DNA of 62,720 nucleotides, the filler included. It is 4 parts of 4 records of this genome, joined end to end, with 100 filler letters (N's around TTAATTAATTAA, not from the genome) between each part and the next. Parts side by side here need not be neighbours in the genome. Positions count along the whole stretch, not along the records: positions 1 to 24,437 come from DRR378314_2286; 3 more parts are not named here. One strand, written 5' to 3'. Below, piece by piece: positions 2,405-47,473 of the stretch. Position 1 is the first letter of the stretch. Each line of letters starts with the position of its first letter. The translations under genes and the position numbers were made by a program. Under the pieces are notes generated by a model, which was not told where the DNA came from, did no database searches, and saw only the letters and a list, made by a program, of their open reading frames with translations.

Positions 2405-5400
2405 ATGAGCTCCAGAACCATATCTGCGTCAGATGTGGAGTTGCAGCCCTCGCGCACTCCGAGCTATGGTACGTTGCAAGTCGCAGGAGCTAACGCTGAG
2501 CTTGTGGGTTTGCGTAAGTCAGTGAAGCTCGATCGTTTTTCCGGAGTGCTGCGCCCGTGCGCCCAAGGAAAAGAAGCGCGACTCATGTTGGGCGCGCACA
2601 CGCGCTTACGGTCCCGTTCTCGCTCTGTGACGGGTGTACAGCTCTGGCCAAGCGGCGATATCTTCAGGTCATTCAAAATAATGTACATATTTTACATGAT
2701 AGTATAACTGGCTTGTGGGCAACTGCGCTCACGGCGCGCGTCGCTTTGCGGGTGTGCAACGGGCCGCTGAGCCCACGAGAGCGCGGAGATGTGCTTCGCA
2801 CTCCGTGCGTTGCACCTGTGTTCCACGATGACTGATCGCAAGTGTGCTTCGGCTGCTTTGGATCAAAACACTCCTTGCAGGGCGCGCGGCCTCGGCACCC
2901 CCCAAAGAAGCCCTCGCAGAAGGTCGCCTTGGCTCAGTGGCAAATTTAGTGTATCCAGGTACGCTGTGTGTGTGAACGCGCGAACCTGGGAGCGTACAAG
3001 CATTGAAACGGAGTCCTCGTCTGCAGCAGTTGCCTGCGCAGAGCGGCGCTATCCACGCACAGCGGCGCTCGCACTCCCCTTTCGTACAAGGTCGTCTCTC
3101 GAGCGACGACGCTCGGTGGCCGCGTTCTGAAGCTCACCCCCGACTCTGATCATTGGACCATATCAATATATCGTGATGCCAACAGGCTCGAGCGGAGACC
3201 GACGTCGCTACCACATCGTTCGATATGCGCCAATTGTGATCGTGGGAATTTGGCTGATGCTACCACAGCGAACCCCACCAGGTACCGTTGCGACCTTTCC
3301 GTTTTTGTACCGACCAAGTTCAGCTTCCTCTGGGAAACTAGGTTCATTAGCCCTTCACTTCTCGGGCGGTCGCATACAGAACACAGGGGGTGCTTTCACT
3401 AATATGTTCAACATGATAGTTTCGGTGTATCATTGTCGCTGTGATTACGTGGTGCGCAGCTCGGGATATGGTTTCTGGCAGTCGCGTGTACTCGTTTTTG
3501 CTGCACCAGCTCCATCCCTCCCTGCGGCTGAGGTTTGCGCTGCGTCCTGCTTACGCTCCCTCGTTTGCCGCAAAGGAGACTGCCCTTCTCGTGGATACCC
3601 TTTGCCCTTGCACTTCCTGTACACGTGCGCGTGTAGATTTTGCAACGTGATGATCTCTGTATATGAGGGTTTAGGCGAGTAGAAACGTTGAAGAGGAAAT
3701 TTTGTTGCGCGTTTCTCTCCAAGCCTTCGCGCCTGGTGCTGCCGGCACGTGCACAAGTGCTTAGGCGAGGTTCTGCTCCTCCTTGGCTGACGGCCTTCGG
3801 CCCACGGTTCTGCGCTTCTCGCCAGGTAACGGGGCATCGCCAAACGAGTGCGCCGACCTGATTCTGTACTCGATATTCTTTCGATGCATCTATTCTGCAA
3901 TCGCCGTTGCTATGGCTCTTTACTCGTACCGCCTTGTCGTCGAGTCAGTGGGATGGAGCACATTTACCGCAGCAGTTGCGGTGGGCGCTGGCGTCGAGAC
4001 AGCCCTTTTCCTGGTGCGCGCCAATAGGCCGCTGTGCTGCGACCTTTGTGTACACCTGTTGCTGAGGTATCATGATTATATTTCGAGATCCAGACACAGT
4101 AGTGAGGGTCCTTTTTTCCGGTACATGCGTTGTATGCAGCATATGGGCTGTCTGGACCCGAACGATCGCGCAGCCAGCCCTGCATTGGCCGGGGGGGGAC
4201 TCTCTCTCCGTCCATGTTGCAACTGTTGTTTCGCAGATGCGCATCAGCATGGCGCTGCCGTCGGGCAACATTCGTGATCGATTTGCAGTACACTGATAGC
4301 GCTGCGTTACGACTGCGTTTTGTGAGATATGCGATGCGCTACCGGCGCGGAGGCCCATGCCCTTACGATACCTATTCTTTCTGTACTTTGGGTTATTTTG
4401 TGCATGTCGTACCGGCTTCAGTTTCTGGAGAGCAAAAGGAGCCACATGACGAAGGACCAGTTCCAAGTTCTTGAGCCTGTCACGCTCGCAGCATCCGCTG
4501 TTGTCGTCTTTGTTGTCGGGGCGCTGCCGGGTTTCAGATTCCAACCGGGCCCTGATCGCACTGCTTTTTTTCGCGACTACAAGTACACATCGCTTGGCAT
4601 CGTTATTATTGTTCTTTCATATTACTATTCACAGGTACGCGCAAATCACACTCTTGTGAGAAGATGTAGTCAATAGTATGAGCTAAAGAGCGCTGTGTGT
4701 CTTCGTTTCGCTTCTCGATGCGGGCGAGAAAAGAGCAGTGAGCCTGCCGAATTTGTCAGGGATTGCGCGGCTTTCCCGTAACCCGCGGCAGTGCAGCGTG
4801 TACCACTATGCGAACTGACGGCAGGCAAAAATTTTTACGAGCCGATTCGCTCTCCGCCTTGCATTTATTGGTAAAGGTTGAATATTTCGTATGTTGCGTA
4901 TACCGCTATGCATCTCGGGGGGGATCGCTCGCACCATCTGCAGCGCAAAGACGCGTTCCAGTATCGCAAACGCCCATGCGAGACTCGCATTGGCCACAGG
5001 CACTCACGCACCTCCACCCAAGGTATGGAGAAGTTAGGCTTATGGTTCTGATCAAACAGACTGGGTTCGTACTTTGCGTACCCTTTCGTAGGTTTTCGCC
5101 GGATTGTTTGACGACGTCGACAACGCCGAGCTGCGATACAGGGTTCTTTTGCGCATTGCCTTCCAGCTGGTATTCCTCGTGCTGAAGAGTGCGATGGCGA
5201 TATGCACGGAGAAGCTCTCTCATCTTGCCGGGCGACAGCTTCTTGGCTTCATGTTCGGCTTCGTTGTAGATCTGATGTTTTTGGTATTCTACAAAAACCT
5301 CTTCCCGGAGTTTGTCGACACAGTTGAACTCTTCGCAGCCTTTCAAGTGACGTCGTTCTTTGCCATAATGGGAGAGTATCCGCTCCGGATGACTCAGTGG

Positions 5401-6493
5401 TACTTCCGTTTCCGAAACCGCCAGCGAGTGCGCAACAAAGTACTACGATGGCTAATCAACGAGCAGACTGACTACGGGCAATGGGTGAGGACGCTTACGG
5501 TTGACTTCTTCTTCCGAACCATTGCAGAGATACAATCGTTCCTGGTTGCAGTGTTGTTCATCACCTTTTTGCGATTCGGCTGGAATCAGGGATTCTTCCC
5601 GTACGCTGGTGACGACTTGCCAAAGGAAGACTACGAACGCGCAATGGTGTTCCTTGCGGTATCTCTTGCTTTCGAGATCGTCATTGTAATATTCGTGCGG
5701 TATTTTGTACGTTTTGTGAGCTGCAAGAAGAAGAAGAAGAAGCACGGATGCCAGTCCTGTGCGCAGGGAAACGCGCAGTGCACCGCAGAAGCAGACGCAG
5801 GCGGCGGGAAAGCCGCTGCGCTCGGCGCGCACCTTCTGCTGACCCGCCGGGCAATGCGCAGAGCCGACGCTGTGGATTGTGTGTGTATGTATCAGAGACA
5901 CCTGCACTGCAGCCATCGTGCTGGGCTAGCAAGAGATGCTTCGTGAGAACCTCCGTGAGACGGCTTGCAAGGGTTTTGCGTATCGTCGCCCGAGCATCAT
6001 CGCTGCAGGTATCGGGATATCGTATGGATTGGAAGGGCCGAGATCTTGCATTTATTTCGTCATCGTTTGCATTCAGTTCTGCAGCGATGTATGGTATAAT
6101 TGGGCGTAGCTGTGCCATCCTTCGCGATTTGCCTGGCTTTGGTGCATTCTGCAAGGTAGAGCAATCGAAACGAGTTTCCAACCCTAGTGTGCAAGAGGCA
6201 TGCCAATCTGTGCGCCAGGGCCGGTAAACGTCGCGGGAAAGGAACATCTGCAGCGAATTCAACAATCCCTTATCGTTACTTTTTCTCGAATTATTTTTTG
6301 GGGGGTGCAGGCTACTCGAGTTATTCAGAAATTCGAAGAAGAGACAGAAGATTCGTCCTCACGCCCGCGGGAAGCTTTCACGCTGGGCTCGCGCATCATT
6401 CGACCCCTTGGCATGCAAATTGCTCTCATTCTTGCGAGCGCTCATGTCCAGCAAGATCTTTTTGTTTCGCAACACAGTCTGACATTTTGCTGA
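2405..6493 (+). CDS. Multi-exon multipass membrane protein of unknown function
   Basis: Hydrophobic exons with GT-AG ends: 2405-2468, 2642-~2750, ~3133-3281, 3826-4013, ~4353-4634, 5092-5715, 6009-6155, 6311-6493(stop). Examples: LILYSIFFRCIYSAIAVAMALY, LGIVIIVLSYYYSQ|VFAGLF, EIQSFLVAVLFITFLRFGWNQGFFPY, IALILASAHVQQDLFVSQHSLTFC*. The 5' exons are less certain than the 3' ones. Confidence 0.65.
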
Positions 6494-7761: not shown

Positions 7762-10662
7762 ATGGCCAGCGCGTCGGAAACCGCAGCACTTCGCGACACC
7801 TCGAGCGTTGCAACGCCGGAGACAGACGATGAGTTGGCTGAGTTTGAAGCACGGGTGCGTGTCGACCTTCTTGAGCTCCAGTATGCGACTGCATCGTTGT
7901 CCTGGAGGTGTGGTGCCCTTTGTTGGCAAGCGTTGTATAGGCGAGGAGGCTTCGACGCATGTGCTTTTCTCGAGCCAACGCCGTGACCTGCTTTTGTTTG
8001 GCTCTTGGCGCGTGTGGTGCCGCGCAGGTCGAGCAAATCGCCCTGCGGCGCCTTGAATCGGGTCACTTCCGACAGCGACCAGCCGCACCGGAGAGAGGAT
8101 GGCATCGGTTTTTCATGTGCGGTCCGAATCCGAATCCCCAGTACGTGGAGAACGCAACAGCGAGTTGCGGATGCAGCGCGTGGGCTGCGGATCGAGGACA
8201 GCGAGCGCACGCTTCTGTGCTGCTCAAGCTCGTACGCTGCTGTCGTAGATGCATGTTGTGGTCGTGCGGACGGATTTTTCTCCATTTTCTGTCCGATTCC
8301 GATGTCAAGGTAGTTACTTGTAAGGTTCATGTCACTCTGTACTGCGATGTGGTGAGCGATTTTGTTGGATTTGGGTGTGCGGGCGTCCCTCGGCGGTCGC
8401 GTGGTTTGCGCTTGTCGCTGCCCTCGAGAGAACAAAATGTTGGGCCAGCTCAGTCTCTTCGCACGGTGCCTTGCCATTGCTGGGCGCAGTGCAAGCTTGG
8501 GATGTAGCGAGCCATGCAAATTTACAGCAATCGTGCAATGTGAAAGGGCGTACAGGGGAGCGCTTCGTCGTATTCTCGTATGCCAATGCACCGCGGGACC
8601 CTGCCTGCAAACGCCCGGCCAGTGTAGAATGTGTGTTCGCCCATATTTCGCTTCGGTGGCAGCTTGCCGTGATCCTTGCTCTTCTTTTTGGGTCGGAGCG
8701 CATTGCGTGCGGTTTTGCGGCATACTTTTTCGTAGGGAATCCTTCAGGGATGGCTATTGTTGTATATTGTTGATCCATTCTCGGAACGTGCGCTCAGGAA
8801 AGATATGGCATTTCTGTGTGAGACGCATCCTGCACGCGGAAGTGCACGGCGTTTGCGATTGGCTCTGCTTCGCACCTCCGGCTTGGGCTCAGTGTTTGCT
8901 TTGTTGCTCCCGCGTATTGCCACGGCAGGCGGAACTTAAGTTTATCCCTTCTCTACCTGTTGCGGATTTCCATCGAGCTTCCAATCTGCATTTTGTTCTG
9001 GGATGCGCCCTGTGATGAGCCGCTGCGTCAATATGTAACTACGGTGCTCTTGTTCGATGTTGTACTATGGCCGGTACGTCGAGTGTTTGCCGCGCAAAGG
9101 TGACGCGCGTGGTGAGCACAGGTGCTACGGTGCATTCTCCCTTTCTTGTACGTGATCGAACTTGCCATTGCAAAACTGCAGGCGATTTTATATAAATATT
9201 GGATGTTCTTCATGGTATACGTGTATACGAAGGAGATTGTGGTGTCTCTGCGTGCAATGGCGCGCTTGGCACTGTCCAGCTAGGCTTACCGGCGCTGGCG
9301 TCCGTGCTGCGCCGTCGAGCAGATGGGCTTGTTTTACGATCCGCAGCAAGTGTGGTTCCCGAGCACTCCCGGCGCGCGATGGCACCGGTCCTATCGTTCA
9401 CTTTCCACTATATACTGGTTCTGGCTCATGGTGGGAACTGTTTGGACATTCCGATCCAGCTCATGCGAGCCTGGCCTGCGAGGTAAGCGCCGCCGCGCCT
9501 GCCCTGTTCCGTGCCCAGCTCTCGAGCCCTACGGCGCGGTGGAGGTCCTCTGCGCTGTAGCGAGGCTTGCCAGCCCGTTAACCGCGCCAGGGACGAGGGG
9601 GAGTACAATGATGTCCACGAAAACATGTAAATGATAGCTAATGAGTGAATTTCGGGGTTGATGTGAATGTAGCTTGTTGTTTCCTGAGTTTGTGTATGCT
9701 CGCTACGTTTTCATCGACGTTTGCTCTTTGTCCGCTAAGTTTCCGTCGGATTGCTTCTCTGCTCTGCGTCGACTGTGCCATGGTCTTGTGCATGCTTCCT
9801 CTCGTACAGCCGGCGCGTTCGCTCTCGCTTCTATATTTCTCGCATCGACATTGATTTACTGTGCCTCGTTCTGTTCTGCTGTGAGCATTGTGTTTGTATC
9901 TTTCGGGCAAGCTTTGGAAGAAGCCCAGCATGCGCGCGAGAACCTCGAGCAAGGCGCTCGCCCGGAGGTGCGAACACAGCGCGCGTGAGCTCTTCGCGGA
10001 CAATCCTGGGCCTGGGAGTATGTGAATTGCTTTGCGGAACTCATGGGCGTGTCGTTTCCTGTACCTGGAAAAAATATGTGGAAATGCAGGACTTACGCCT
10101 TGTAAAAAGAATGACGTATGGAGAGTTTTGCGAGCACGATCAGCAAACAACGGAACAGGCTACGTATGTTTGTTGTCTGCACGAGGCTGACGTTTTTCTT
10201 CCGTTGGAACGGCATCCACCTCAACCCGCCAAAGGAGACAGCTACCCAAGAAGTATTTTGCACGCATCCAGTTGCCCGTGTTGATGAGTATATGATACGC
10301 TATCAGGTACAAAGTTGTCATCAGACATCGCTGTAAACTCGGTGGACGTCGCACTACGCTCCTAGCCGTAGACCGTACCGCTTGCGCAGTGGCTCGGCAT
10401 TCCGCCCCCGCAAGGCTTGCGAGCGATTGTTGCCGCGGCGCCGCCCACCGTGCGACTCGCCCCGCTTTTCTTGCATTGACGAGGATTTACTCGGCGACAC
10501 GGTATCCATTTTTCTAAATGCGTCTTGCAGACAATGTGCTATAACGCTGGAGGACTTCGAGGACGATAGCGATGTCGCGTTTCTCCCCTGTGGGCATATC
10601 TTTATGCATGGCCCAGCATTGCAGTGGCTCGAGTCGCATTCGCGGTGTCCACTCTGCCAGAG
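7762..10662 (+). CDS. Multi-exon transmembrane protein with a C-terminal degenerate RING-H2-like domain (putative membrane E3 ligase); last exon not located
   Basis: Phase-consistent exons 9347-9482 (IYWFWLMVGTVWTFRSSSCEPGLR), 9810-9967 (TM, then NLEQGARPE), 10090-10163 and 10531-10662 (CAITLEDFEDDSDVAFLPCGHIFMHGPALQWLESHSRCPLCQ). Upstream exons from ATG 7762 (7762-7854, 8028-~8140, ~8735, ~9182) are tentative. The layout matches multi-TM + RING-H2 ligases. Confidence 0.7.
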
Positions 10663-12013
10663 GTGAGTCTGCTGTGCAATATTTTGGCAGGAATTTCGTC
10701 ACTCTTACCTTGGATAAGCATATTCACATACATGTGCTTTGATGCGTTTCATCTACGAGGATCCGTGTGGGCGTCCCTTTGACATTGTGCCATATTTGCG
10801 CGCCCACACCTCGGCCATCGTACTGCAGGCCCCTGGACCTTGGTGATGAGGACGGTGGAGTGCGCGACATTGAGGCTGGACGCCTCGCGGAAACCTCCAG
10901 CCTCCGGATCTAAGCCTGACGGCGTGCTAGTATTTTGACTCATTCATTTGCGTACGCGATTGGTCTCGGTACATGGTAGATGGGTGATAAGATTTGCGGT
11001 TCTCTAGCGCACTGCGCGTGTGTGTGCTTGTGTGGAGTGTGTCGTGTTGGTAACAGCTGCGTGCCCTCAGGCGGGGAGACTTCTGCCCTCCATGCATGTT
11101 GTATCCCCCGCTCTTTTTGCGCATCGTATTCCCGCTCGCATTTTTTTTGGAAAAGTTGTTGTCCATTCCAGGCTGTTAGATAGGTCGAATGCCGCGCTGT
11201 ATTCTCATAATTTTCAAAGAGGCTCGCTCGGACATAGTCCACTGCGGCGCGTGAAGTTGCTGCTCGCGTTGCTTGTGCGAGCAGTTCGTTTCCATAGATG
11301 TCGCAATGCTTCAGGCCACAGCTCTTCTTTCTACTTGAAAGGAAAAATTCTTGCTGTTGAATCGCGCTGAAAGGACATCGAAATACAAAGTTGTATCCAT
11401 TCGTGGATGTTTTCAGAGTGTCGGCCGAGCTGTGTGCTCTTGCGCACCCAGGTAAGCTCTACACGAGGCACACTTCGCTGGCAGGTGTAGCGTTCAGCTC
11501 TTCACTGCAACCATTGTACCGTTATTTTGCTTGGTGACACCTTATCTGCCAGAAATGAGCGGGCCAGGGGGGAGTGAATTTTGCGAAATTGAACGGCGTC
11601 GTAGGCGCGACGGACCGAAACGCGACAGCGCACCAGCTCAACGTGGCTGTCTGCGCCACTTGCAGGGCATTTCGCCATGCTGCTTCCCATATCAATACTG
11701 TCTGTTAGTAAGTCACAGTACAATACACAAGTGTTCAAGTTGATCATTTGAATCACGGCAGGCATAAGCCCTAGTTTGCGGGGTCGCCTGGACAGCTTTT
11801 GTGGAAGCGGATAGGCTGACATCCTAGGGGTAACAACGCAATTCTTCCTTCACGGTCAGTCAAACTTGATTGGCTGGTACCACTTTGGCAGGTTTGTCCA
11901 GAGGGCGCTTGCTCCACGCAGTGACTTTGGCAGGCGCTGCGCCGCGGGCCCCTTTCACAGGATATTTTATTGTGCCTCGTTGCCTACGCAGGTTCAGGGT
12001 ACACTCTGACGCA

Positions 12014-15000
12014 ATGGCGCACACGCGACAGGCGTTTTGGATTGCGCTTGTAGCGCTTCTTGCTGTAGCGACGGCGGCGAAGTCGTCACTGCAGGAGAAA
12101 GTATCGTATTTCGATGGAGAATTTGTTGCCGAATCGCTGGCGAACGAGCAAACTGGGCGCTTTACTGCGCGCAGCGGGCTGGTAAACTCCGCGCTCGGCA
12201 GCGAGGAAGACAGTTTTGTTTCGTTGCTTGCCGCTGCGGGTTCGAGCAAAGGCGTACGTTCTTCTTCACCGCGGCTGCACAGCGCCTGAGAGCACGCGCC
12301 TCTGTTTGCAGCTTCCCTACGCGCCTCGAGCTCTCTCGTCCCGGACCTTCTCGTTGGTGTGCGTGGCGTAGATGAGGCGTCGCCTTTGCGGCTGCATATG
12401 TTTGTGATAGCTCTATGCCTTGAAGCAGTATGCGATCGCATTGGCTTCGCGAGTCAGAACGCCACAGTCTGGAGGGCGAGGTGTTGCAGGAGCATCCGGT
12501 TCCGCTTCCCCGCGCTCGCGCTGATGCACCTGCTCTGGGCGCGCGCTGGCTCGTCGAATGTGGCGTCGCAGTGCACAAGGAGCCGTCCTCTTCTTGCGGC
12601 CGTGCGTTGCTAGCGTCTCTTTTATGTAGAGCCGTTTCGAGTGCCCCTTCAGTTCTTTTTGCGCGCGTAGATCCGTGGAATTTCATGTATACATATATTT
12701 TTAGCAACTATGATTTTGCTCGGCGCAAGTGCCGATGCTATACGAGTTGCCCTGGACTAGATTCGGCTGTCGCCGTGGCAGTGTCCGTGACAGGCTGCGC
12801 CGAGATGTGGCGGTGGCCAGCTTGTCCGGGTTGGCTCTGCGCCGTTCTTTTCCGTTTCGTTGGCGGCCCCCCTGAGCCGCGCGTGCGGAATACGCCGCGG
12901 CCTGGCCACCTTTGCGTGCATAAAGCCGGATATCAGCCGCATGTGTAGCAGAGTAGTATTGTGAATCTTGTTTGGGGGCGTTTATTTTACAAAACACTGT
13001 TGAACTAGGCGCACGTCATCGTTCTACTCTTGCCGGCGCCCACGGAAGGTTCTGCTGATACTGCCCTGGTGCCCGAGTGGTGCGCGTGCGCGCCCATACC
13101 CCAAGAGCCGAGTGCGTCGCAGCCGCATCGCCTTTGCCTGCGCTGGCGCGCACTGCTGCACAGCTCCCCCGCACACTTCCCTCGTGCGTCGCTTTTTTAT
13201 CGTTGGTGCGTGTCTCGTACGAAATCTATGCAAAGTAATGATATATATTTAATTTTGTAGACAGGATGGTGTGTTTCTGTCCTTTGTGCAGCCGAGCATC
13301 TACCTCGCGTTTGTGTTCCTGTGCTGTCGTCCACGAACCCACAGGCCTACCGTTCCGCAGCGCAGTGCGAGCTTGCGGTCTTGGTGTGCGGTTCGCAGAA
13401 TCCTCATTGCAATGTCTGGGCGACTGAAGTGGCGGAGTAGGGTTACGTAAATATCACAGTTGTGTTCATTGACGAACGCACGTTGCTCGCCATGGCGTAG
13501 TGGCTGGCAAGCGGGGTTGGCCCTTGCCTACGGGATCGTGTGTTTGTTTTTTTTTTTTTTTGTTGGCGTTTCGGATGCACGCGTGGGAGATGAAAAGAGT
13601 GCTTATATGTGATCTCATGTGTTTTACCGTAGCGCACACGCCAGAACTGGCAGAGCAAGGACGTTTCGTGCGCCGCGACTGCGTGGTCTGTGCGACAGAA
13701 CTTTCGTGTTCTGGTGGGCAGCCCTGCTTCTTTGCCCCACCCTACCAGCATAGCGCACCGCCGCTCCGCCAGTGCCCTTTTTTCACCGTGAAACTGCAAT
13801 TCCGCTTTCCTATCGCATGATTTCGCGCCACCGATCTTGCTTTAGAGAATTGGATTGGTGATTTGGAGAACCATTCCTCGCACATCGTTTTTTCGGCGGC
13901 GTACCGCTTCCGTTGAGAAAACCGTCTGTCCTGGAACGACCTGTTGCGTTAACCCGCTGGCTATTTCCGTGCGCACACTGCGCGTGCCGCCCGCCCCTTT
14001 TTTTTCTCTTTTTTTTTTCGTCGCACCGGCCTTGCAGCATCTGCACGACTTTTCAGCCGTGATCAAGGTCCTACAGACTGTAATCAAGCAGCTAAAGGAG
14101 GAAGTGACCACGGCGCACGGCCACCTCGAACGCGAGCGCGCGGAGCGAAAGAAGCTGTTGCTCGAGAAGATTGCTGCTCGTGAGCTCTGGGACCAAGCTG
14201 AAAAGGCGCTGGAGCTCCGCACCGGTCAGTGCAAGACGACTAAGAAAGACTGCAAGGAACTTTTTGAGCAGCACAAAAAGGAGCGCGAGCTCATTCAGAA
14301 GATGTTTGAGCTCCTGAAGAAACTCTCGTCCGAGGGAAAGCGCTCTGGAAGCAGTGGCAAGGGAGCGGTCTTTGCGGACTTGTCGTTCATGAGCACGCAG
14401 CTGTCGAACAGCCCCGTGTTTGCCGCCGCGGACGAAACAAACGAGGCGGGGCAGCAGCTGTCGGAGCTGCTGTTGCGCGTGACGCGGCTTGCGGCGATGT
14501 CGCCAGAGCAGAGGCATCAGGAGGCCACGCAAATCTGGAAACTGCTTGAAGATATTCTGAAGCGTCTTGACGCAGAGGAGAAGGACTGCACGGACAAGAT
14601 GAAGAAGTGCGATGTCGATCTGAAGCAGCTGAGCTCTGATGCCGAAAAGAAGAAGGCACTGTCCAAGCTTGCGGACGCCAAGTACGACGAGCAGGACGGC
14701 AAGGTGAAGGAGGCAGAGAAGTTCAACGGTGAATCCAAGGCCACCGTCGAAAAGGCGATTCCTTTCCTGGAGCACCTGATCAAGACGCTCTCCGGAAATG
14801 GCAAGGCTGGCGATTTCGAAACCGACAAGGAGAAAAAGTTGCGCGAAGAGAATGAGAAGCTGAAGAAGGAACTGGAAGACCTGAAGCGCAAGAATGGCCA
14901 CCTCGAAAAAGAAGTTGCAGAGGACGAGAAAAAGGAGAAGATCGAGGAGGAAAAGAAGCGCGCGAAGGAACAGGCCGCTGCAGATCGCGAAAAACGCGAA

Positions 15001-18000
15001 GAGCAGCAGGAGGCTGAGCGCAAGAAGCTTAATGACAAGGTTGATGAAGCGCGGCAGAAGTCTGAAAAGGCCGATGAAGCGGCAAAGAAGGCGTGCGATA
15101 AGAGCTCTGGCTCGTACTCGGCAGCGACGTGCGAACAGGCGAAGAAAGCGGCAAAAGACGCCAAGGACGACCTTGACAAAGCAGAGAAAGAGCGCGAAGA
15201 TGCTCTCGAGCGGCAGAGTGAGGCGGACCGCAACGCCCGGGAGCAGGAGCGTGCCGTGCATGAGCAGCATCGTGAGAAAGAAGAGAAGCATCTCAAAGAC
15301 GTACGTTGCTGTTGGGATAAGTTCAGATTAGCACTCCTCCTTCCCGGCCTTGCGATCTTTTCGTTGCGGCGTTCGCTCAGAGGCCGCAAGTGCAGTACAG
15401 CACGCTGGCGTTGCCGCCAGACGCAGATTGTGATACAGCGACGATGACTCGCCTTCCCTGCTTCACCTTTCCTACTTTCGATGCGGAGCACAGCGCGGCC
15501 TGTCGCCGTCGCTGACCTCGCGGTCGGCGTGGTCGTTCACATCACCAAGAGCGTTTCAGCGGATGTATGCAGGGTAGGCGAGCCGTGGCTGCTGCAGTGT
15601 GCACTGCCTAGCGAAAGACATGCTCTTCTGCACGAATCAGTAGTGGCCATTTCATGGCCCCGATGCCGCATTCTCGAGCTGGTTTTTCCTCTTCTTTCTT
15701 GTTCTCTCTTTTTTTTTTTCTTTCTTGTGCCGTGACTTGTGCTGGTTACTTTCGTTGAAGTGCAGAACAGTCTCTTTTATTTCCCGACATAGATATACGA
15801 TTTCTGACGCGTTAATATTTTCATGTTCCTTTCCTTTCCTCTCCTTGCCGTTCTTTCTGCTGTAGTCTGTGGACGCGCAGAAGAAGCGCAACGACGAGGC
15901 TGCCAAGGCTGAGGATGCCGCCGAGAAGGAGCGCGAGCAGAAGCGCAAAGCAGCGGAGGATGAGATCAAGAAGCAGCTGGACGAGCTTAAGAAAAAGCAC
16001 GATGGTGAGCGCGAGAAAGAAAAGGCCGAGTCTGACAAGGCCACCGGCAAGCAGAAGGAAGCCGAGGAGAAGCTTAACAAGGAAATCGAGGACCTGAAGA
16101 AGCAGATTGAGAAAGAGCGTGAAAAGCAGACCGAGAATCTTCAAAAGGAAGCTAACAAGCGCCAGGAGGAAGTTGATAGCAAGGAAGATGAAATCACGAA
16201 GAAGAAAGCGGCCGAGGATGAAGAGGATCGTAAGAAGATCAGCGAGGCCGAGAAGGCGGCGGAGAAGGCGAAAGAGGCTCTTGATAAGCTGCAGAATGAC
16301 AATAAGGCGGAGGCTGCCAAAGAGAAGATTGCGCAAGACTCGCGCGACCAAGGCCGCAAGGACAAGGAGGATGATCTCCGCAAGGAGGTCAGCAAGCAGG
16401 TTGGCGAAGATGCGGAGAAGAAAGTCAAGGAAAAGGCTGCATACGATGCCAGCGAGAAGGACCGCCAGGAGGCTGAGAAGAAGGCGCAGGATGCGCTTGA
16501 GAAGGCGAAGAAGGAGAGCGCCGAGGCTGCCGCCAAGGAAGCCGAAGCGAACAAGATCGCTGAAGAAGCTCGCAAGAAGGAAGAGGACGCCGCTGCAAAG
16601 AAGGTTTCGGATGCAGAGAAGGCAGCGGAGACCGCGTGCTCGTCCTCCTCATCCTCGTCGTCGTCGGGTAGCTCTGGGTCCGGCTCTGGGTTGCTGAGCT
16701 TCCTCGGCCTTGGTGCAAGTGATGCGTGCACGGAGGCCAAGAAAAAGGTCGACGAGGCGAAAAAGGCACTCGAGGATCTGAAGAAGAAGAATGACCAGGC
16801 CCGCGAAGAGGCCGCAAAGAAGGCCGCCGAGGAGAAGAAGAAGCGCGATGCTGCCGAGGAGGCGCTGAAGAAGGCGCTGGACGACCTCAAGAAGAAGAAC
16901 GACGAGGCAAGGGCCGAAGAAAAGAAGAAGATGGACGAAGCGCAGGCTGAACGCCAGAAGAAGATCGACGAGGCAAAGAAGGCGCTCGAAGAGCTTCAGA
17001 AGAAGCACAAGGATGCGTCGGATGCGGAGGACAAGACGAACGACGCCGCGGAAAAGAAGCGCCGCGAAGCCGAAGAGGCCGCCAAAAAGGCGCTCGACGA
17101 TGCGAAGAAGGCGCTCGAAGAGCTCAAGAAGAAACTCGCCGAGGAGGCTGCAGCGCGTGAAAAGGCGCGTAAAGCGGAGCTTGAGAAGCTTAAGAAGATC
17201 GCTGACGATGCCAAGAAGGCTGCAAAGGACGAGAAGAAGGCTGCCGAGGCGCGCGAGCAGGAGCGCAAGGATCGCGCTGATGCTGCCAAGAAGGCCTTTG
17301 ACGAGCAAACGAAGCGGATCGAGGCGGATCGCGCCGCCGACAAGGCAGCCGCCGATGCGCGCGAAAAGGCGCGCAAGGATGCCGAAAAGGCTGCGCAGGA
17401 AAAAGCAGACTCCGCAAAGAAGAACGCTGAGACTGCGTGCGGGAAAGACGTGTCGAGCTCCGCGTGCAAAGAAGGCCTTGAAAAGCACAAGGAAGCGGCG
17501 AAAGAGGTTGAGAAGCTGAAGGAGAAGCACGGCAAGGAGGCCGGCGAGGAAGAAGCTGCCGCTAAGAAGAAGGAGGAAGAGCGTAAGAAGGCGCTCGACA
17601 AGGCCAAAGAGGAGCTCGATAAGGCGCGAGAGCAGAATGAGAAGGAGGCAAAAGAAGACGCCGAGGCGAAGAAGCGCCTGGATGATCTTAAGAAGCAGCT
17701 TGAGGATAAGCAGAAGGAGCTTGACGATCTGAAGAAGGAGCACGGCAACAACACCGCCAAGAATGATGCTGAGCAGAAGAAGCGCGATGCTGAGCGCAAG
17801 AAGAAGGAGGACGAGCTGAAGAAGAAGCTCGACGACCTCCAGGCACAGCACGAGCGCGAGCGCGCTGCCGAGGCTGAGAAGCGCAAGAAGGCGGACCAGG
17901 AGCGCAAGGAGAAGCTCGATGAGCGCGAGGGCGAGTACAAGCAAGCAAAGGACCGCAACGATGCCGCGCGCGAAGCGGACAAGAAAGCAAAGGAGCTTGA

Positions 18001-18988
18001 CGACAAGGAGAAGGCGCTCGAGAAGGCGCTCGAAGAAGCACGCCGCAACGTCAAGGATGGCGCGCAGAAGGATAAGGAAGACGCTGAGCGCAAGGCCAAG
18101 CTGCGCGAACAGGCGGAGCAGGAGGCGCAAAAGAAGGCTGACGAGGCGCAAAAGAAGGCCGATGCATGCAAGGGCAGCTCGTCTTCAAGCTCTTCCAGCA
18201 CGTCCTCGGGCACGTCTTCGTCGAGCAGCGAGAAGTGCCCCAAGGGCTGCATGCTGTACTTCGATGGGTGCCGCACCTGCTATTGCGGCGACGACGGCAC
18301 GATGAAGCAGTGCACTGGCACTGCCGGATGCGCGAACAAGGAGTCGCCGCACTGCAAGAAGTTCTCTCTTTTGCGCCACGTGGATGCGTTCGTCGATGCT
18401 TCTGCAGGCAGCGGGGCAGAGGATTCTCAGCTCGATGAAGTCAGCGATGGCTTCTCCGAGGATCTGGGCGCCACGTCGTCCGAGTCGTGCGAAGATCTGA
18501 AAGAGAAGGCGGCACAGCTCAAGAAGGAGCTGGAGGATCTGAAGGCAAAGAACGCCAAGGATGCGAAGAAGGAGGCCGAGGACGCCAAGACGCGCCAGCA
18601 GGAGCGCGAAAACAAGGTTGCTGATTTGGAGAAGCAGCTGCGTGACCTTCGCAACGAGATCCGCCGTAATGAAGAGCGCAAGCTCAGCAGCGACAAGAAA
18701 GACGCCAAGATCGGCGACCTGGAGAAGAAGCTGGGAACGTGCGAGAAGGAGCGCAGTGACCTGAAAAAGGAACTCGCCGCGCAGTCGTCGACTAAGAAGA
18801 CGGCGGCGGCGCCGCTTCTGGGCGCTCACGCCGATGAGCAGTCCGCCGCTCGCGCGGACGCGCGTGATGCCTTCAGCAAGCTCCAAGACGAAGAGAGCGC
18901 CCTCGAGAAACTCCGCACCGAGCACTTCGATGCAGACAATGTAGATGCGGCGGCCCTTTTCAACGTTGGCGACGAAAATGAGCAGTAG
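12014..18988 (+). CDS. ~1,540-aa secreted Lys/Glu/Ala-rich coiled-coil protein (3 exons) with Cys-flanked Ser loops and a pacifastin-like Cys knot
   Basis: Exons are 12014-12253 (signal peptide MAHTRQAFWIALVALLAVATAA; donor GTACGT), 14038-15300 (polypyrimidine + TTGCAG acceptor; donor GTACGT) and 15866-18988 (polypyrimidine + TGTAG acceptor; TAG stop). All junctions are phase 0. This joins track ORFs 13855..15447 and 15869..18988. The exon 1 link across a 1.78-kb intron is inferred. Confidence 0.8.
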
Positions 18989-20372
18989 GCGCATCAGTGG
19001 CGCTGCTGCTTGGTCGGAATCGCGTGCCAGAGCGCTGCCTCGGGTCTCGGGCGAGCGGGCCCACTGCTGACTAGCACGGGCACCGCCTCGCTCTGCCTCC
19101 GCGCGTCGCTGTGTGCGGCGTTGTCTGCGGCGTCTGCCGCTGGCGACTCTGCCGCCAAGCCCGGTGCCTTTTCCACCAACAACTGCCCCGTGCTGCCGGA
19201 GTTGTGCCATGGGCGGAGACTGAGCCATTTTATCTGATTTGGACTCGAAGACGCCATGGGGTGCAATCTTGCTTGCATTGGTGCGTGTGCTATTTTTGTG
19301 CGTGAGCTATTTTTTGTGCGTGTGCCTTGCAGTATCGCCCCGCGTGCATACTGTACGCAGGCGTGTGTCTGTGTGTGCGCATGCGTGTTTCTGTTTGTTT
19401 TCTACTGTACCCGTCTGTAACACATGCATGGGTAGTGGAGCCGTTTGCCGTTGCTTCATTTCAGCTCAGCAGTGCAGAAGAGCTGAAGGCCTTGGAATGG
19501 CGAAGGTTCGGGAGTTGCCGTTGCGGGCAGCTTGCCGGTACCCAGTGCTGCCGCTCGAGGGCGCGCGTGGCTTCTCTTTTTCCGCGTGTGTGCGTGGCCA
19601 AGCGTGCACAAGTGATGCGTGCGTTGAAAGAGTGCCGCCCGGATCGTATCCTGTGCGTCGCTCTTAGATGGCGGCACACGAGCTGTGCTTTCACGGCGCA
19701 CCGTGAACAGCGCAGCTGGTGCGCGCTTTCGAAGCATCCCTGTGCGCTTCCCTCGCTGTCGGACAAGATTGCCTTGGCGGCCTTGCGATGCGGTCCGTAC
19801 TGTTTTCCCTTAGCGAAGACTCGCTATATTTGCCCTAAGTTTCTTTTTTTTTTGTGGCAGCTGATTGAATGTATTTGCGTCGGCTGAGAGTCGCCTTGAG
19901 ACTCTCTGCGAAGCTTCGCTTGCAGTAAATGTGCAGCGCTTCGCTGCTCGGTTTCCATACATGGGTCTGACGGTTTTGTTCGTCTTCAAATGGCACGTTG
20001 CATCACATGTCCGACTGCAATTCCTTCTCTCGTCCTCGGCCGCTGCCAATCGAGCGCAATGGATTTACAACGCACACGTCCCACGGATAGCATCGGGATC
20101 GAAAAGGGATTCTGGCGATTCCCGCCGGCTGGGGTGCTCTCCGGTAGTCTCGGCTCCCAGAACGGACGGCGGCGCCAGGAATCGGCGCTGCCGTCAACCT
20201 ACATCCTAAACCGAATTGGTGCACGGCGCGCTCCCGCCACACGGCGCGCGGAAGCGGGTGGCCGGCGTGAGACTCGCTAGCAGTTGCAGTGCTGCCGACT
20301 TCCTCGCCAGTGCAGAGCGCCTTTGGAGCCTCTCTGTTTGTTGCACGTGCGCCACTGTGTCAGGTAATCACC

Positions 20373-23300
20373 ATGTCTTCCTCCAGCACATACTTGACAT
20401 CATTGCAGACGAAGTTTCCTGTCCACAGCGGCCTGATTGAGGAAATTACTGGCCTTCAGCAACGTCGGTGCGTTTGCGTTTGGCTGTGGGCACCCGGGCT
20501 GTGCCGCACAGCTACCGGTTCACGCGCGGGTGCGCCGTCACGTCGCGCAGCTCAACACGCGCCCTCGCGCCCCTCTCCGGCTCTCTTCTGTGACGAGCTT
20601 GTGTTCGGAAAGTGCAGAATATGTCCCTCTGCATACACATGTGAAGTAGTGCTCACATGTCGACAGCGCTTTGTGCATTCAGTACCCTGGTAGGATCCGT
20701 TGCCGACCTTGCCTTGTCCGTTCCCGAGAAAAAGGACGTTCTCTTGTGGTTGCCAGCGAAAGGCCGTGCGCGCGGTGCGTAGCCAGTGCAGGGCTCAGCT
20801 ACACGCTGTACCTCGCCCCAGCGACTGTGAGCGCTCCTCCTTTCCCGCGGAAAGCTTCACCGTATCTTTCCACGTGTATACCGCAACGTAGATCGCCAGT
20901 GTGATACACATTCACTCTGTACGTGCTTTGCGTATGGAGGGAAGATGCCTCGCGAAACATTGCGCCTGTGGAACGACGAGCGCGTATTGTCAGCTTCGCG
21001 CGCTCCGAGAGCCACCGACTTTGGCACCGCGCACGCGCACGCGGGGCGCGACACACCCTGCGTGTATGTTACTCTCGCGCACTCTACCCGGCAGTGTACT
21101 CCTCTGGGCACTATATTTCGATGCATGTTTTTAATTGAGTAATTTCGAAGCATGGTGGCGCCTTTGCGTGCGAAAGTCTGTCGCAGCCTTTTGCGGATGA
21201 GTAGTGTGCGCGTGTGAAGTAGCGCCGAGATACTATCGACGCACAGCTGCGTCACTCGGCCGCGCCGCCTGTTCCCGTGTTATGCCCCTTGCTTTCCGCG
21301 CGGCTTCTGCGCTGCAGATGGCAGACGGCTGTCGCATCGTGTCCTTTGCTGCACAGCTTGTGACAGTAAGAAGATGGCTGTGTCTCGCACCTGCGGGGGA
21401 GTTGCCCTTTCTGTCTTTCTGTTACGATTCCCTTGTCGATTACCTTGTGAACCCACGCGACGCCGCCCTTGCTTCTTGCTGCCGATATCGCAGTCTGTGG
21501 CACCAGTTGACCATCAAAGTGGACGATCTCCTGCGCTCGCCAGAGCTCAAGGTACGCGTGATTTACACCATCGAGCGAGCCTTCCATAGTCTTAGAACTT
21601 GTATTCTGCTCTATCAATGGGACGTGGTATCCGGTCCATTTCTTTAGGCAGATGCGCGGTGAAAGATTCGTTGTGGGAAACGCTATTGTGTGCACTTCGT
21701 GGCGTGCATCGCACGCGGATGCTTGCTCCGCCTTGGTGCACCAGCTGACCGCTACTCGTACCTGACGTTTTGCGGTATTGCGTGCAGGATGAAGCTGCCT
21801 CCTTCTACAAAAACTTTCTCGCTGAAATCGAAGCGAAGCTGAGTCCCGTGCGCTGCGCTGCTTTTGCCACGCGCGCCGCAGAAGCGATCACAGGTGCGAG
21901 AGCTGCTGTTACGAAGAGCCGCAGTGCGCGCAACTGTTGGGCACTTGTTCGGCTCGCGGTGGTCAGCGAGCGATGCTCTCGTGTTTCCGGCGCATTTGTC
22001 AGTGCACCATGTGTGCCTTGTTTCGCTCGTCATCCGGTAACCAGGCATATCATTGCTCATTTTCCCCGGTGTCTGGTGCCTCCTCGTTGCGCGAATTTTC
22101 TCGCTCGCAGATGCAAAGGACCGGCTTGCATTCCTCGAGGATGTCTTGTCTCGTGTTGCGGATAAGAAGCGAGTATGTTTCTGAACACACCATACGCAAT
22201 TATACACACTCGGTTTTGTGATAGGTGCCTCCCTATTCTGCATACTTGCAGAAAATAATACAAGTTGCTCGATGTAGGTGAATACTGCGAATCGGGCGCG
22301 CCGCGAGGTGACGCATACCGGATCTCCTCTTACTTGGGCTGGACTGCTGCGCGGAACTTCTGTTTTAGGAGTACCTTGCGACCTCGCGTGATGCTGCGAT
22401 GCTCTTGCGGTCTGAATGTGCCCTGGCGAAGCTCCACGCAGGTGATCCTGTGGTACGATCAGCAGCCTTGTGTGCGCTGGAGCTATAGCACCTGCGTATC
22501 GTACACTGCCTACAGGCTATCAGAGCGGAAGAGTTGGTAGCACCATTCTTGTTGTGTCGACAGTGCGCGCACCTGTCACGCTGTTCATCCATAAATCTAT
22601 CGGTTTTGTACACCCGCGGTTTTTCGCGATGCCGTAGACTTGCAAAAAGGATCTCGACTCCCTGTACGCTGATCTCGAAGGCGTTGCTGGTGTGGAGGCG
22701 CAAGTGCATGCAAGGTACGAGCACTGCTGCTCTCCCCACCGCGGAAGGCAAGCTCGCGCTAGTGCTTAAAGTTGCCCTGCCTGCATTCCATAGTGCTACA
22801 TCTGCCTGTTTACAAAGTTGTCGTTTTATCGCCGACGTGGAATGAATAGACGAGCGTGCTCTTTGTCAAGCTTAGCGAGGCAACATGGCCGCAGTACAGT
22901 AGTGGTAGGGTAACCCCAAGCCAAGGTTTCCGGGCTGTCTGCTTGCTAGGCAACTCGGATTCCGCGACAGACGTGCTGCCCTCGCAAGATGGGAGCGCCT
23001 AAGTGGTCGTTTCGAGAGATGTATTCCGCTACATGGAGAGGGTATTTCTGGAATCGATCGTCCAGTGCATATCAGCGCGAATGCGATTTCCTTCCTGTGG
23101 AGCCTGGCTTGCTGCTGCGATGCTCCCTGACGCAAGGGCAGAGGCTAGGAGCATTGCTGAGAGGCTGATGCGTACTGCTGCCCTCCGCAGTTCGCTTCGC
23201 CGATCTGACAACACCGCTCGTGTTGTTTTCGGGCATATGGCTCTCTGTGTGCCTGGTATAACCCCGGATGTTTCGTAAATCTTGCAGTGTCTATCGCACA

Positions 23301-24205
23301 ACGGCGGAATACTGGCGGACTGGACGTCCGAACCCCGGCGAGTTCTATCGCAGCGGGTTGCTGTTCCTGGCGTATACTCCTACGGAGACACTTGCGGAGG
23401 ACGACCAGGTAATGCACACTTCTTTAGCGCTGACTTGGCTGCTCCGCATTCTGATTGTGCTCGTAAAGCCTTGTGTCTATGCATTGCTTCTGATTCCGCT
23501 ACGAAACACTGACTAATGGCTTACCCATGATTGAAGGCAAGATTGTCATGAGAGGTATAGCGTGGATATTCCCTCTCTTGCGCGTCCGCGTTTGCGTCCA
23601 GTGCCCACCTTATCTCTTTGTGGTGCACACATGCTGGAGCTCGCATTTTTGTTCTGTTGTTGTTGTTGTTGCTGTTGGGCTCATGTTTGTCTGGTTGTCC
23701 TCTTATTTGGTTTTGGAAGGGGAGCGCTCTTGTCTACCGTTGGCGCTGAAATTCGTCACCCCTCAAGTAACTAGTAATCTCACATTTGAGTACTGCGTGA
23801 TTTGTGCGGTACGGGGAACATTCTTTCCAGGTGCAATGGGCATTTGATCTCGGCGTAAGCGCTCTTTTGGGCGACGACGTGTACAACATGGGCGAGCTGG
23901 TACGTTCTTGGGAAGAGCTCTAGTGCGGAGCGGTTGTGCTGCAGCCAGCCAACGCGAAGTGTGGGCGATCGGGTAGTGATATTGGCAACGTTCTTTTGGC
24001 TCTCGTGGAGCTTCTTCTCCGTGTATATTTGCAGAACATGCTCACTTTTCTTTCACATCCGCCTGCCGGTGCGTAGCTGATGCACCCCGTTTTCGAAGCG
24101 TTGACGGCGGACAAGAAGCATGGCTGGATGTCCAAGGTGCTATCTGCGTTCAACGCCGGTCGAGTGGGCGACTTTAATTCGCTTGTGAAGGCAAACTCCA
24201 CTCAG
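20373..24205 (+). CDS. RPN9: 26S proteasome lid subunit RPN9/PSMD13, 9 exons, 3' partial at the contig end
   Basis: Phase-consistent exons 20373-20467, 21494-21551 (LWHQLTIKVDDLL), 21788-21893 (FYKNFLAEIEAKLSP), 22111-22172, 22369-22452, 22638-22714 (GVEAQVHAS), 23288-23408 (EFYRSGLLFLAY), 23831-23899 (AFDLGVSALLGDDVYNMGEL) and 24077-24205 (LMHPVFEAL...W...LSAFNAG). These are all characteristic PSMD13 motifs. Confidence 0.93.
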
Positions 24206-24437: not shown

Positions 24438-24537
24438 NNNNNNNNNNNNNNNNNNNNNNNNNNNNNNNNNNNNNNNNNNNNTTAATTAATTAANNNNNNN
24501 NNNNNNNNNNNNNNNNNNNNNNNNNNNNNNNNNNNNN
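24438..24537. other. Artificial contig spacer
   Basis: 44 N + TTAATTAATTAA (stops in all six frames) + 44 N. Confidence 0.99.
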
Positions 24538-24539
24538 CG

Positions 24540-40290: not shown

Positions 40291-40390
40291 NNNNNNNNNN
40301 NNNNNNNNNNNNNNNNNNNNNNNNNNNNNNNNNNTTAATTAATTAANNNNNNNNNNNNNNNNNNNNNNNNNNNNNNNNNNNNNNNNNNNN
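40291..40390. other. Artificial contig spacer
   Basis: 44 N + TTAATTAATTAA + 44 N. Confidence 0.99.
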
Positions 40391-47373: not shown

Positions 47374-47473
47374 NNNNNNNNNNNNNNNNNNNNNNNNNNN
47401 NNNNNNNNNNNNNNNNNTTAATTAATTAANNNNNNNNNNNNNNNNNNNNNNNNNNNNNNNNNNNNNNNNNNNN
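47374..47473. other. Artificial contig spacer
   Basis: 44 N + TTAATTAATTAA + 44 N. Confidence 0.99.

Follow-up and report, generated by a model that had tools for sequence, protein, structure and literature searches.

The window analysed here, a stretch of 62,720 nucleotides (nt), consists of four separate pieces with runs of N between them at 24438-24537, 40291-40390 and 47374-47473, and the gene described in this work is located on the first piece (positions 1-24437, record DRR378314_2286; G+C ~55%). The gene is transcribed and spliced as three exons, has a signal-peptide-like start and maintains a conserved reading frame. The coding sequence joined from the three exons comprises 4,626 nt and specifies a protein of 1,541 residues, with the terminal TAG as its single stop. 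The protein is rich in Lys (18%), Glu (16%) and Ala (16%) and contains only 6 Pro; the mature chain has a mass of 170 kDa and an isoelectric point (pI) of 6.01. The features of the gene and its surroundings are summarized in Table 1.

The exon structure is defined by a 5,546-nt contig of run X1, which matches positions 12089-12253, 14038-15300 and 15866-19100 with 0 mismatches and joins 12253 to 14038 and 15300 to 15866, with GT..AG at both joints. Run X1 is labelled RNA by guess, and its contig is without both introns; a second X1 contig takes the transcript up to position 11957. The exons are exactly those predicted by an earlier sequence-only reading of this DNA, which had named a transcript lacking the joint between the signal-peptide exon and 14038 as the result that would speak against its proposal; the X1 joint 12253>14038 bears that connection out. 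Also supported, by the TAG stop, the G+C content and the X1 contig, is the view of that reading that a spliced gene, here seen to be expressed, encodes a giant secreted protein and that the genome is not of ciliate type. Within intron 1, a 171-nt X1 contig of low depth (2.1) lies on the opposite strand (12605-12775, -); it may represent unspliced RNA, antisense RNA or DNA carry-over.

Pieces of exon 3 are also present in two poly-A/oligo-dT metatranscriptomes of other studies (aquatic and marine), where stretches of 201, 341, 169 and 289 nt match at 0 mismatches and others are 90-97% identical. The identical and the 90-97% identical versions from these environmental metatranscriptomes span 16099-18938, which suggests that related strains or species carry the same gene. 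Among the variant sites listed, 34 of 40 are synonymous third-position changes and the other 6 are conservative replacements. On all these grounds the frame is real, is expressed in nature and evolves under purifying selection. Runs X2 and X3 hold parts of exon 3 only, with nothing informative on the N-terminal module, and were used only to show that identical pieces occur, their shares being small and no habitat being inferred from them. Internal joints in X2 and X3 were disregarded, as their sides are only 25-27 letters long with extra letters between them and they resemble repeat or other-organism artefacts. The host is a microbial eukaryote of marine and other aquatic samples that expresses the gene.

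Table 1. Features of the gene and of its surroundings in the window (aa, amino acids; residue numbers refer to the full-length protein unless exon-2 numbering is indicated)
Feature	Position	Strand	Basis or remarks
Exon 1	12014-12253	+	ATG at 12014, 80 codons
Signal peptide, aa 1-21, MAHTRQAFWIALVALLAVATA	12014..12076	+	translation; cleavage site inferred, A-T-A rule
Pro-like acidic segment, aa 22-80, closing exon 1	12077..12253	+	pI 4.6; 8 D/E vs 5 K/R
Intron 1, 1,784 nt, GTACGT...polypyrimidine...CAG	12254..14037	+	skipped by X1 contig, GT..AG
Exon 2	14038-15300	+	X1 RNA contig
Arm A of N-terminal hairpin, aa 86-179	14053..14334	+	AlphaFold2 helix 6-99 of exon 2, pLDDT 92-97 mostly
First C-x6-C, Cys145 + Cys152	14230..14253	+	sequence; opposite second C-x6-C at i+j=256
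Connecting segment, aa 180-235	14335..14502	+	starts G-K-R, two short helices, R-V-T-R near end
Arm B of N-terminal hairpin, aa 236-331	14503..14790	+	AlphaFold2 helix 156-251 of exon 2
Second C-x6-C, Cys264 + Cys271	14587..14610	+	sequence
Start of Lys/Glu/Ala-rich rod	14824..15300	+	sequence
Cys loop 3, Cys433...Cys445	15094-15132	+	sequence
Intron 2, 565 nt, GTACGT...TAG	15301..15865	+	skipped by X1 contig, GT..AG
Exon 3	15866-18988	+	X1 RNA contig
Rod of degenerate 36-residue repeats	15866..18166	+	motif copies, autocorrelation
Cys loop 4, poly-Ser/Gly	16637-16729	+	within rod
Cys loop 5	17438-17467	+	within rod
Cys1269, poly-Ser tract, 8-Cys knot (aa 1292-1331)	18167..18355	+	pacifastin-like Cys pattern
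Acidic linker, C-terminal coiled coil (single Cys1376, Cys1460), acidic tail, TAG stop	18356..18988	+	pI 4.84
RING-H2 exon, zf-RING_2	10337-10663	+	Pfam E=1.8e-11
PSD13 (proteasome subunit Rpn9) N-terminal repeats, weak	23262-23513	+	E=2.7e-4, 21.4 bits < 27-bit cut-off
Weak sub-threshold Pfam matches on the gene's piece: TMEM95; Arm_APC_u3			E=0.0075; E=0.0033
Bacterial genes: LacI, SBP/solute-binding proteins, GFO/IDH/MocA, aminotransferase IV, Glu/Leu/Phe/Val dehydrogenase, class I tRNA synthetase W/Y, MurJ, GlnD, periplasmic binding protein	from 40391 on

The N-terminus of the protein shows the layout typical of a signal peptide, with R5, a hydrophobic core from F8 to A19 and A-T-A before the likely cut. 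It is also the sole hydrophobic stretch of the protein: all 11 of the 11 windows of 19 residues with a Kyte-Doolittle mean >1.0 start at residues 1-12. The 59 residues that follow end in SFVSLLAAAGSSKG and may act as a pro-peptide. The order of signal peptide and acidic pro-like segment put forward by the sequence-only reading is therefore seen in the translation, in the n/h/c layout of the former and the low pI of the latter. Plastid targeting by a signal plus transit peptide was ruled out because the segment behind the signal peptide is acidic. A membrane anchor, a glycosylphosphatidylinositol signal and retention in the endoplasmic reticulum (ER) were likewise ruled out, as there is no second hydrophobic stretch, at the C-terminus or elsewhere, and the tail ends ...GDENEQ, neither KDEL nor HDEL. 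Long Lys/Glu-rich helices are common in cytosolic proteins, and the gene could on that ground be read as encoding an intracellular coiled-coil protein, cytoskeletal or organelle-tethering, whose N-terminus is no cleaved signal peptide. We find this barely credible in view of the n/h/c layout of the only hydrophobic stretch, and the cysteines, which stand in local pairs at predicted helix contacts or loop bases and in an 8-Cys knot, fit an oxidising compartment.

The N-terminal module was then compared with its earlier description as two similar helical lobes joined by a basic linker. All of the motifs quoted in that description stand in the translation of 14038-14800, namely FSAVIKVLQTVIKQLKEE, ERELIQKMFELLKKL, two C-x6-C, GKRSGSSGKG...LLLRVTRLAAM, ATQIWKLLEDILKRLDAEE and KAIPFLEHLIKTL. 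By comparison, the similarity of the two lobes did not hold up. BLASTP aligned only 24 residues (E=0.33) and did so out of register, the last part of lobe 1 being matched to the first part of lobe 2, and the Smith-Waterman score of 43 (34.2 +/- 6.1 in shuffles; z=1.45) was reached by 33 of 300 shuffles. The lobes have in common a C-x6-C and, at either end, a hydrophobic helix, arranged as mirror images, not as a repeat.

A structural explanation for this arrangement is offered by an AlphaFold2 model of the module, computed from the single sequence (predicted local distance difference test, pLDDT, 87.2; predicted template modelling score, pTM, 0.66). In the model, the two lobes are predicted to pair antiparallel as the arms of a single hairpin that carries a four-helix head, which would account for their mirror-image look, and the connecting segment contributes short helices at 108-123, 126-129 and 136-153 (exon-2 numbering). 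In addition, the hydrophobic positions of both arms recur with a period of exactly 3.5 residues and are best matched in the antiparallel registers i+j = 256, 259 and 263; when arm B was shuffled 2,000 times, 26 of the shuffles reached the best count of positions complementary to arm A. One of these registers holds all four cysteines (65+191 = 72+184 = 256, exon-2 numbering), at a peak of hydrophobic complementarity. Within the four-helix head, the twin C-x6-C motifs probably staple the hairpin by a pair of disulfides linking its arms, and the four hydrophobic helices noted by the sequence-only reading would correspond to two contact pairs, one per hairpin end.

Foldseek searches with this model in PDB libraries returned antiparallel hairpins as best matches, led by a chemoreceptor fusion (E=2.7e-3, TMq 0.56) and followed by SH3BP5 and the arms of Smc and MukB; none reached E<=0.001, and all were generic helical hairpins or bundles. 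A PDB sequence search with exon 2 gave one spurious ribosomal match (E=0.072). The module (aa 22-342) has a mass of 35.7 kDa and a pI of 6.48, with ~11 kDa for each arm and pI values of 9.30 for arm A and 5.76 for arm B. A proinsulin-like excision of the whole connecting segment, from G-K-R to R-V-T-R, was considered and downgraded, since the model places R-V-T-R within one of the helices of the four-helix head; only G-K-R (aa 180-182) comes to lie in an exposed loop.

Beyond the module, the chain continues into a long rod. The motif LKKALE(D/E)LKKK(N/H) occurs there in 11 copies, often 36 residues apart, and for each of the three rod segments the autocorrelation of residue identity is highest at lag 36 (0.24-0.34 vs means of 0.14-0.17). 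A tandem repeat of 36 residues equals 10 helical turns. The period of hydrophobic residues plus Ala in the rod is 3.55-3.6, not 3.5. The 21 cysteines of the protein comprise the pairs 145/152, 264/271, 433/445, 759/789 and 1026/1035, the single Cys1269, eight in 1292-1331, and the single Cys1376 and Cys1460; their number being odd, at least one must be free in the monomer for an inter-chain link. The rod motif restarts 14 residues past Cys789 and Cys1376, and a degenerate copy stands at the same offset past Cys1035. An AlphaFold2 model of aa 901-1161 (17063-17845; pLDDT 88.5, pTM 0.54) consists of two helices, 2-128 and 133-260, of ~127 residues each, and its sole break lies between Cys1026 and Cys1035. 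Foldseek again placed helical hairpins on top for this second model, weakly (best E=0.59). Both modelled stretches are predicted to be almost wholly alpha-helical. The Cys-flanked loops of the rod may thus be disulfide-clasped hairpin tips, as the model predicts for one of them, Cys1026/Cys1035.

Searches for relatives were negative throughout. With the 262-residue module as single-sequence query, phmmer gave 0 matches at E<=0.001 among 1,835,955,588 representative proteins. A set of 4,645 candidates that share words with it and are 144-459 aa long, a length like that of ciliate trichocyst matrix proteins (TMP), contained none at E<=10, and there was no relative among 8,000 longer word-sharing candidates. 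For the C-terminal region, a word-index search found no relative at E<=1. Two scans of metagenome contigs yielded 365 and 603 pattern matches, none of which was upheld by tblastn, and tblastn against the window itself found no paralogue. When the translations of the three exons were scanned with Pfam, the sole match was a spurious one in exon 1 (E=0.15). Judged by these comparisons, the protein is an orphan without detectable relatives in the databases searched, which fits the proposal of the sequence-only reading that an undescribed structural protein is encoded here.

The sequence-only reading had in addition likened the module to the matrix proteins of ciliate extrusomes, the trichocyst TMP and the mucocyst Grl proteins. 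The signal peptide and pro-like segment of that comparison stood, whereas the homologous halves and the sequence similarity did not. As a reading of the whole gene, it would make the N-terminal ~340 residues a very remote, extremely diverged TMP/Grl ('T1-F') granule-matrix module in a non-ciliate eukaryote, joined to a 1,200-residue spring-like rod; the product would be extrusome cargo, cut in the connecting segment and then assembled into an expandable lattice or thread. We consider such homology unlikely. TMP halves are homologous and mature TMPs are disulfide-linked, general background that we did not use as evidence. The one line of support for a TMP/Grl link itself comes from a protein-language-model feature search, which placed the module nearest to ciliate clusters with Pfam PF27870 'T1-F' (0.92/0.90/0.89; 202 of 256 features shared; 26 of 30 matches; cluster lengths 181-450 aa) at a recognition value of 1972, below the line of 2300 under which high scores are weak evidence. 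A rod control of the same length (262 aa) found no usable match in the same search. We take 'T1-F' to stand for the trichocyst T1 family from the style of the name (cf. T2-A, T4-B), no confirming paper having been found. A Pfam scan of the module listed nothing at E<=1, in a Pfam copy that does not with certainty include PF27870.

Further points of likeness and difference concern architecture. The module has a heptad-rich helical build behind its signal peptide and pro-like segment, with G-K-R in an exposed loop where cleavage might separate two helical parts of ~11 kDa each, and its mass comes near that of TMP precursors, given in sections of one study as 40-45 kDa and processed to polypeptides of 15-20 kDa (10.1101/607622). 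By comparison, the TMP polypeptides are described in the same source as acidic, at pI 4.7-5.5, whereas neither the module nor, least of all, arm A is acidic. The mature protein, with its ~1,200 further residues, exceeds a TMP precursor fourfold in size. The duplicated halves of the ciliate proteins are missing here, although both arms have the 3.5-residue periodicity; the phmmer searches gave no similarity; there is no sign of a multigene family in the sequence searched by tblastn, that is, the window; and the genome, with its G+C of ~55% and TAG as stop, is unlike that of ciliates. A small probability is nevertheless left to remote homology because ciliate TMPs are, according to passages of 10.1101/607622, scarcely above 30% identical to one another, and because the TMP candidates proposed outside ciliates, in the dinoflagellate Oxyrrhis marina, were found by DELTA-BLAST only, as a passage of PMC8285334 states in citing Rhiel 2018. 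No duplicated pair of TMP-like halves makes up the N-terminal module, which could still, if cut at G-K-R, act in the manner of a processed granule protein of two chains while standing outside the TMP/Grl family.

A second resemblance concerns the knot near the C-terminus. Its core, C-x-T-C-x-C-G-x-D-G-x4-C-T (within aa 1292-1323), recalls pacifastin-family inhibitors, and 9 of 9 matches of a PDB sequence search with aa 1285-1350 belong to that family (E 0.053-0.77, none individually significant), with up to six query cysteines covered in the printed alignments. Pacifastin_I is the only Pfam family listed for the knot, scoring 10.6-12.1 bits where the cut-off is 27.9, and is absent from the Pfam listings when longer pieces of the protein are scanned. 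The pacifastin pattern reads C-x9-12-C-N-x-C-x-C-x2-3-G-x3-6-C-T-x3-C; the knot has R in place of N and a last loop of x4, not x3. This loop, between the last two aligned cysteines, has the sequence T-G-T-A-G and exceeds its counterpart in the aligned inhibitors by one residue. It presumably corresponds to the reactive-site loop, in which T-G-T-A-G would be unusual. The likeness of the knot to pacifastin, as judged from these scores and spacings, is sub-threshold and does not establish membership.

If the knot were the functional part, the protein would be a secreted serine-protease inhibitor on a long helical stalk, serving in defence against grazers, parasites or the cell's own proteases. 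The uniform family of the PDB matches, the shared core motif and the Pfam listing would suit this role, and passages of a recent survey report pacifastin-like domains outside arthropods, in Cnidaria, Rotifera, Fungi and Bacteria (PMC13388995). Such a function is quite improbable given that the Pfam score falls far under its cut-off and the PDB E-values are singly non-significant, that the last loop is longer and of unusual sequence, and that one 40-residue knot would leave 1,500 residues of conserved-frame rod unexplained. Relative to the inhibitors LCMI-II/PMP-C, SGPI-1 and SGPI-2 (PF05375), which it resembles in cysteine spacing and core motif, the knot has two extra cysteines, and it stands singly inside a giant protist coiled-coil protein, whereas the inhibitors come in multi-domain precursor arrays.

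Taken together, we favour with a probability of roughly 60% the reading that the gene encodes a lineage-restricted (orphan) secreted structural protein of ~170 kDa, of fibre or matrix type. In the mechanism that we propose, the chain would enter the ER, where residues 86-331 would zip into one long antiparallel coiled-coil hairpin and the far end of the hairpin, together with the two short helices of the connecting segment, would close into the four-helix head. The arms would be stapled by two disulfides, Cys145-Cys271 and Cys152-Cys264, between the facing C-x6-C motifs. The next ~925 residues would form the highly charged Lys/Glu/Ala rod of 36-residue repeats, folding back at the Cys-pair loops, which would act as disulfide clasps; the poly-Ser tracts are likely sites of glycosylation or phosphorylation, and the small 8-Cys knot would follow near the C-terminus. 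With at least one unpaired cysteine in the monomer, covalent dimers or polymers would be expected, and a fibre or matrix may arise as molecules become linked through the free cysteine or cysteines, the knot and the hydrophobic hairpin ends of the N-terminal module. Cleavage at G-K-R, which is exposed in the model, would yield two disulfide-linked chains. The product would most likely be stored in, or released via, the secretory pathway as extrusome content, mucilage or cell coat, three destinations that look alike at the level of sequence.

On this reading the protein would belong among secreted, disulfide-stabilised helical fibre proteins, and several known systems can be set beside it. Twin CX3C/CX9C proteins of the mitochondrial intermembrane space (CHCH fold) consist of antiparallel helices stapled by two disulfides. 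Similarly, the two predicted antiparallel helices described here each bear a C-x6-C, facing each other in the register i+j=256. The two differ in that the spacing here is x6, one heptad, the arms are of ~95 residues as compared with ~15, and the chain starts with an ER signal peptide, which would assign it to another compartment with its own oxidation system; the likeness is offered as an analogy of mechanism, with no claim of homology or membership. In overall shape, both predicted models resemble hairpin or stalk-plus-head proteins in the PDB, including the chemoreceptor cytoplasmic domain (3zx6, 2ch7), SH3BP5 (6ixf), Smc/MukB arms (5nnv, 6h2x), Enterococcal PrgA (6z9l) and the RipA N-terminal domain (9hmx, 6ewy). 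They share 8-16% identity with the N-terminal model and 13-23% with the second model, the scores are in a range common for helical proteins, and none of them is a secreted eukaryotic Cys-stapled fibre protein. Fibrinogen carries 'disulfide rings' at the ends of its coiled coils, and cnidarian minicollagens have Cys-rich end domains. By analogy only, these share with the present protein long structural segments bounded by Cys pairs or knots able to cross-link chains; here, by contrast, the prediction is that each Cys pair clasps a hairpin of a single chain.

The surroundings of the gene were scanned as well. Because the window joins four unrelated pieces, arguments from context across the N borders are invalid; the pieces from 40391 onward, for instance, carry bacterial genes. 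On the gene's own piece, 198 further open reading frames (61 + 137) were scanned with Pfam, and only the RING-H2 exon scored well, in addition to three weak sub-threshold matches. Plant- or algal-like neighbours, invoked by the sequence-only reading, consequently carry no weight. The RING-H2 exon lies upstream of the gene on the same strand, and further upstream is a membrane-helix-like reading frame (5092-5943, +); the two may belong to one multi-exon gene for a membrane RING E3 ligase. At the contig end, a 450-codon open frame (3-1352, -) that leaves the contig matches no Pfam family; its N-terminal half is basic and of low complexity, and its C-terminal half is Gln/Glu/Leu-rich and coiled-coil-like. 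On a different contig from the gene, 24486-32252 (+) is one open frame of 2,588 codons with ~62% G+C and a C-terminal RING finger (zf-C3HC4_3, E=5.1e-5, under the cut-off). No Rfam families or tRNAs were found in the scans.

To our knowledge, there is little molecular knowledge of what non-ciliate protists shoot out or coat themselves with. The gene described here has been seen in one transcriptome-like run and in the poly-A metatranscriptomes of two further studies, and the proposed design of its product is simple and testable: hairpins pinned by facing Cys pairs, a rod of 36-residue repeats and an inhibitor-like knot. The predicted twin C-x6-C staple matched no known family in the searches made here. 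The knot, if real, would be a pacifastin-like domain in a protist. Should the unlikely TMP/Grl homology prove true, extrusome matrix proteins would be older and more widespread than ciliates, and the twin C-x6-C hairpin, cut into two disulfide-linked chains, would be an ancestral building block. The likeness to the ciliate proteins would thus link extrusome matrices across lineages if it reflects homology; if it does not, the protein would represent an independent solution to the same problem.

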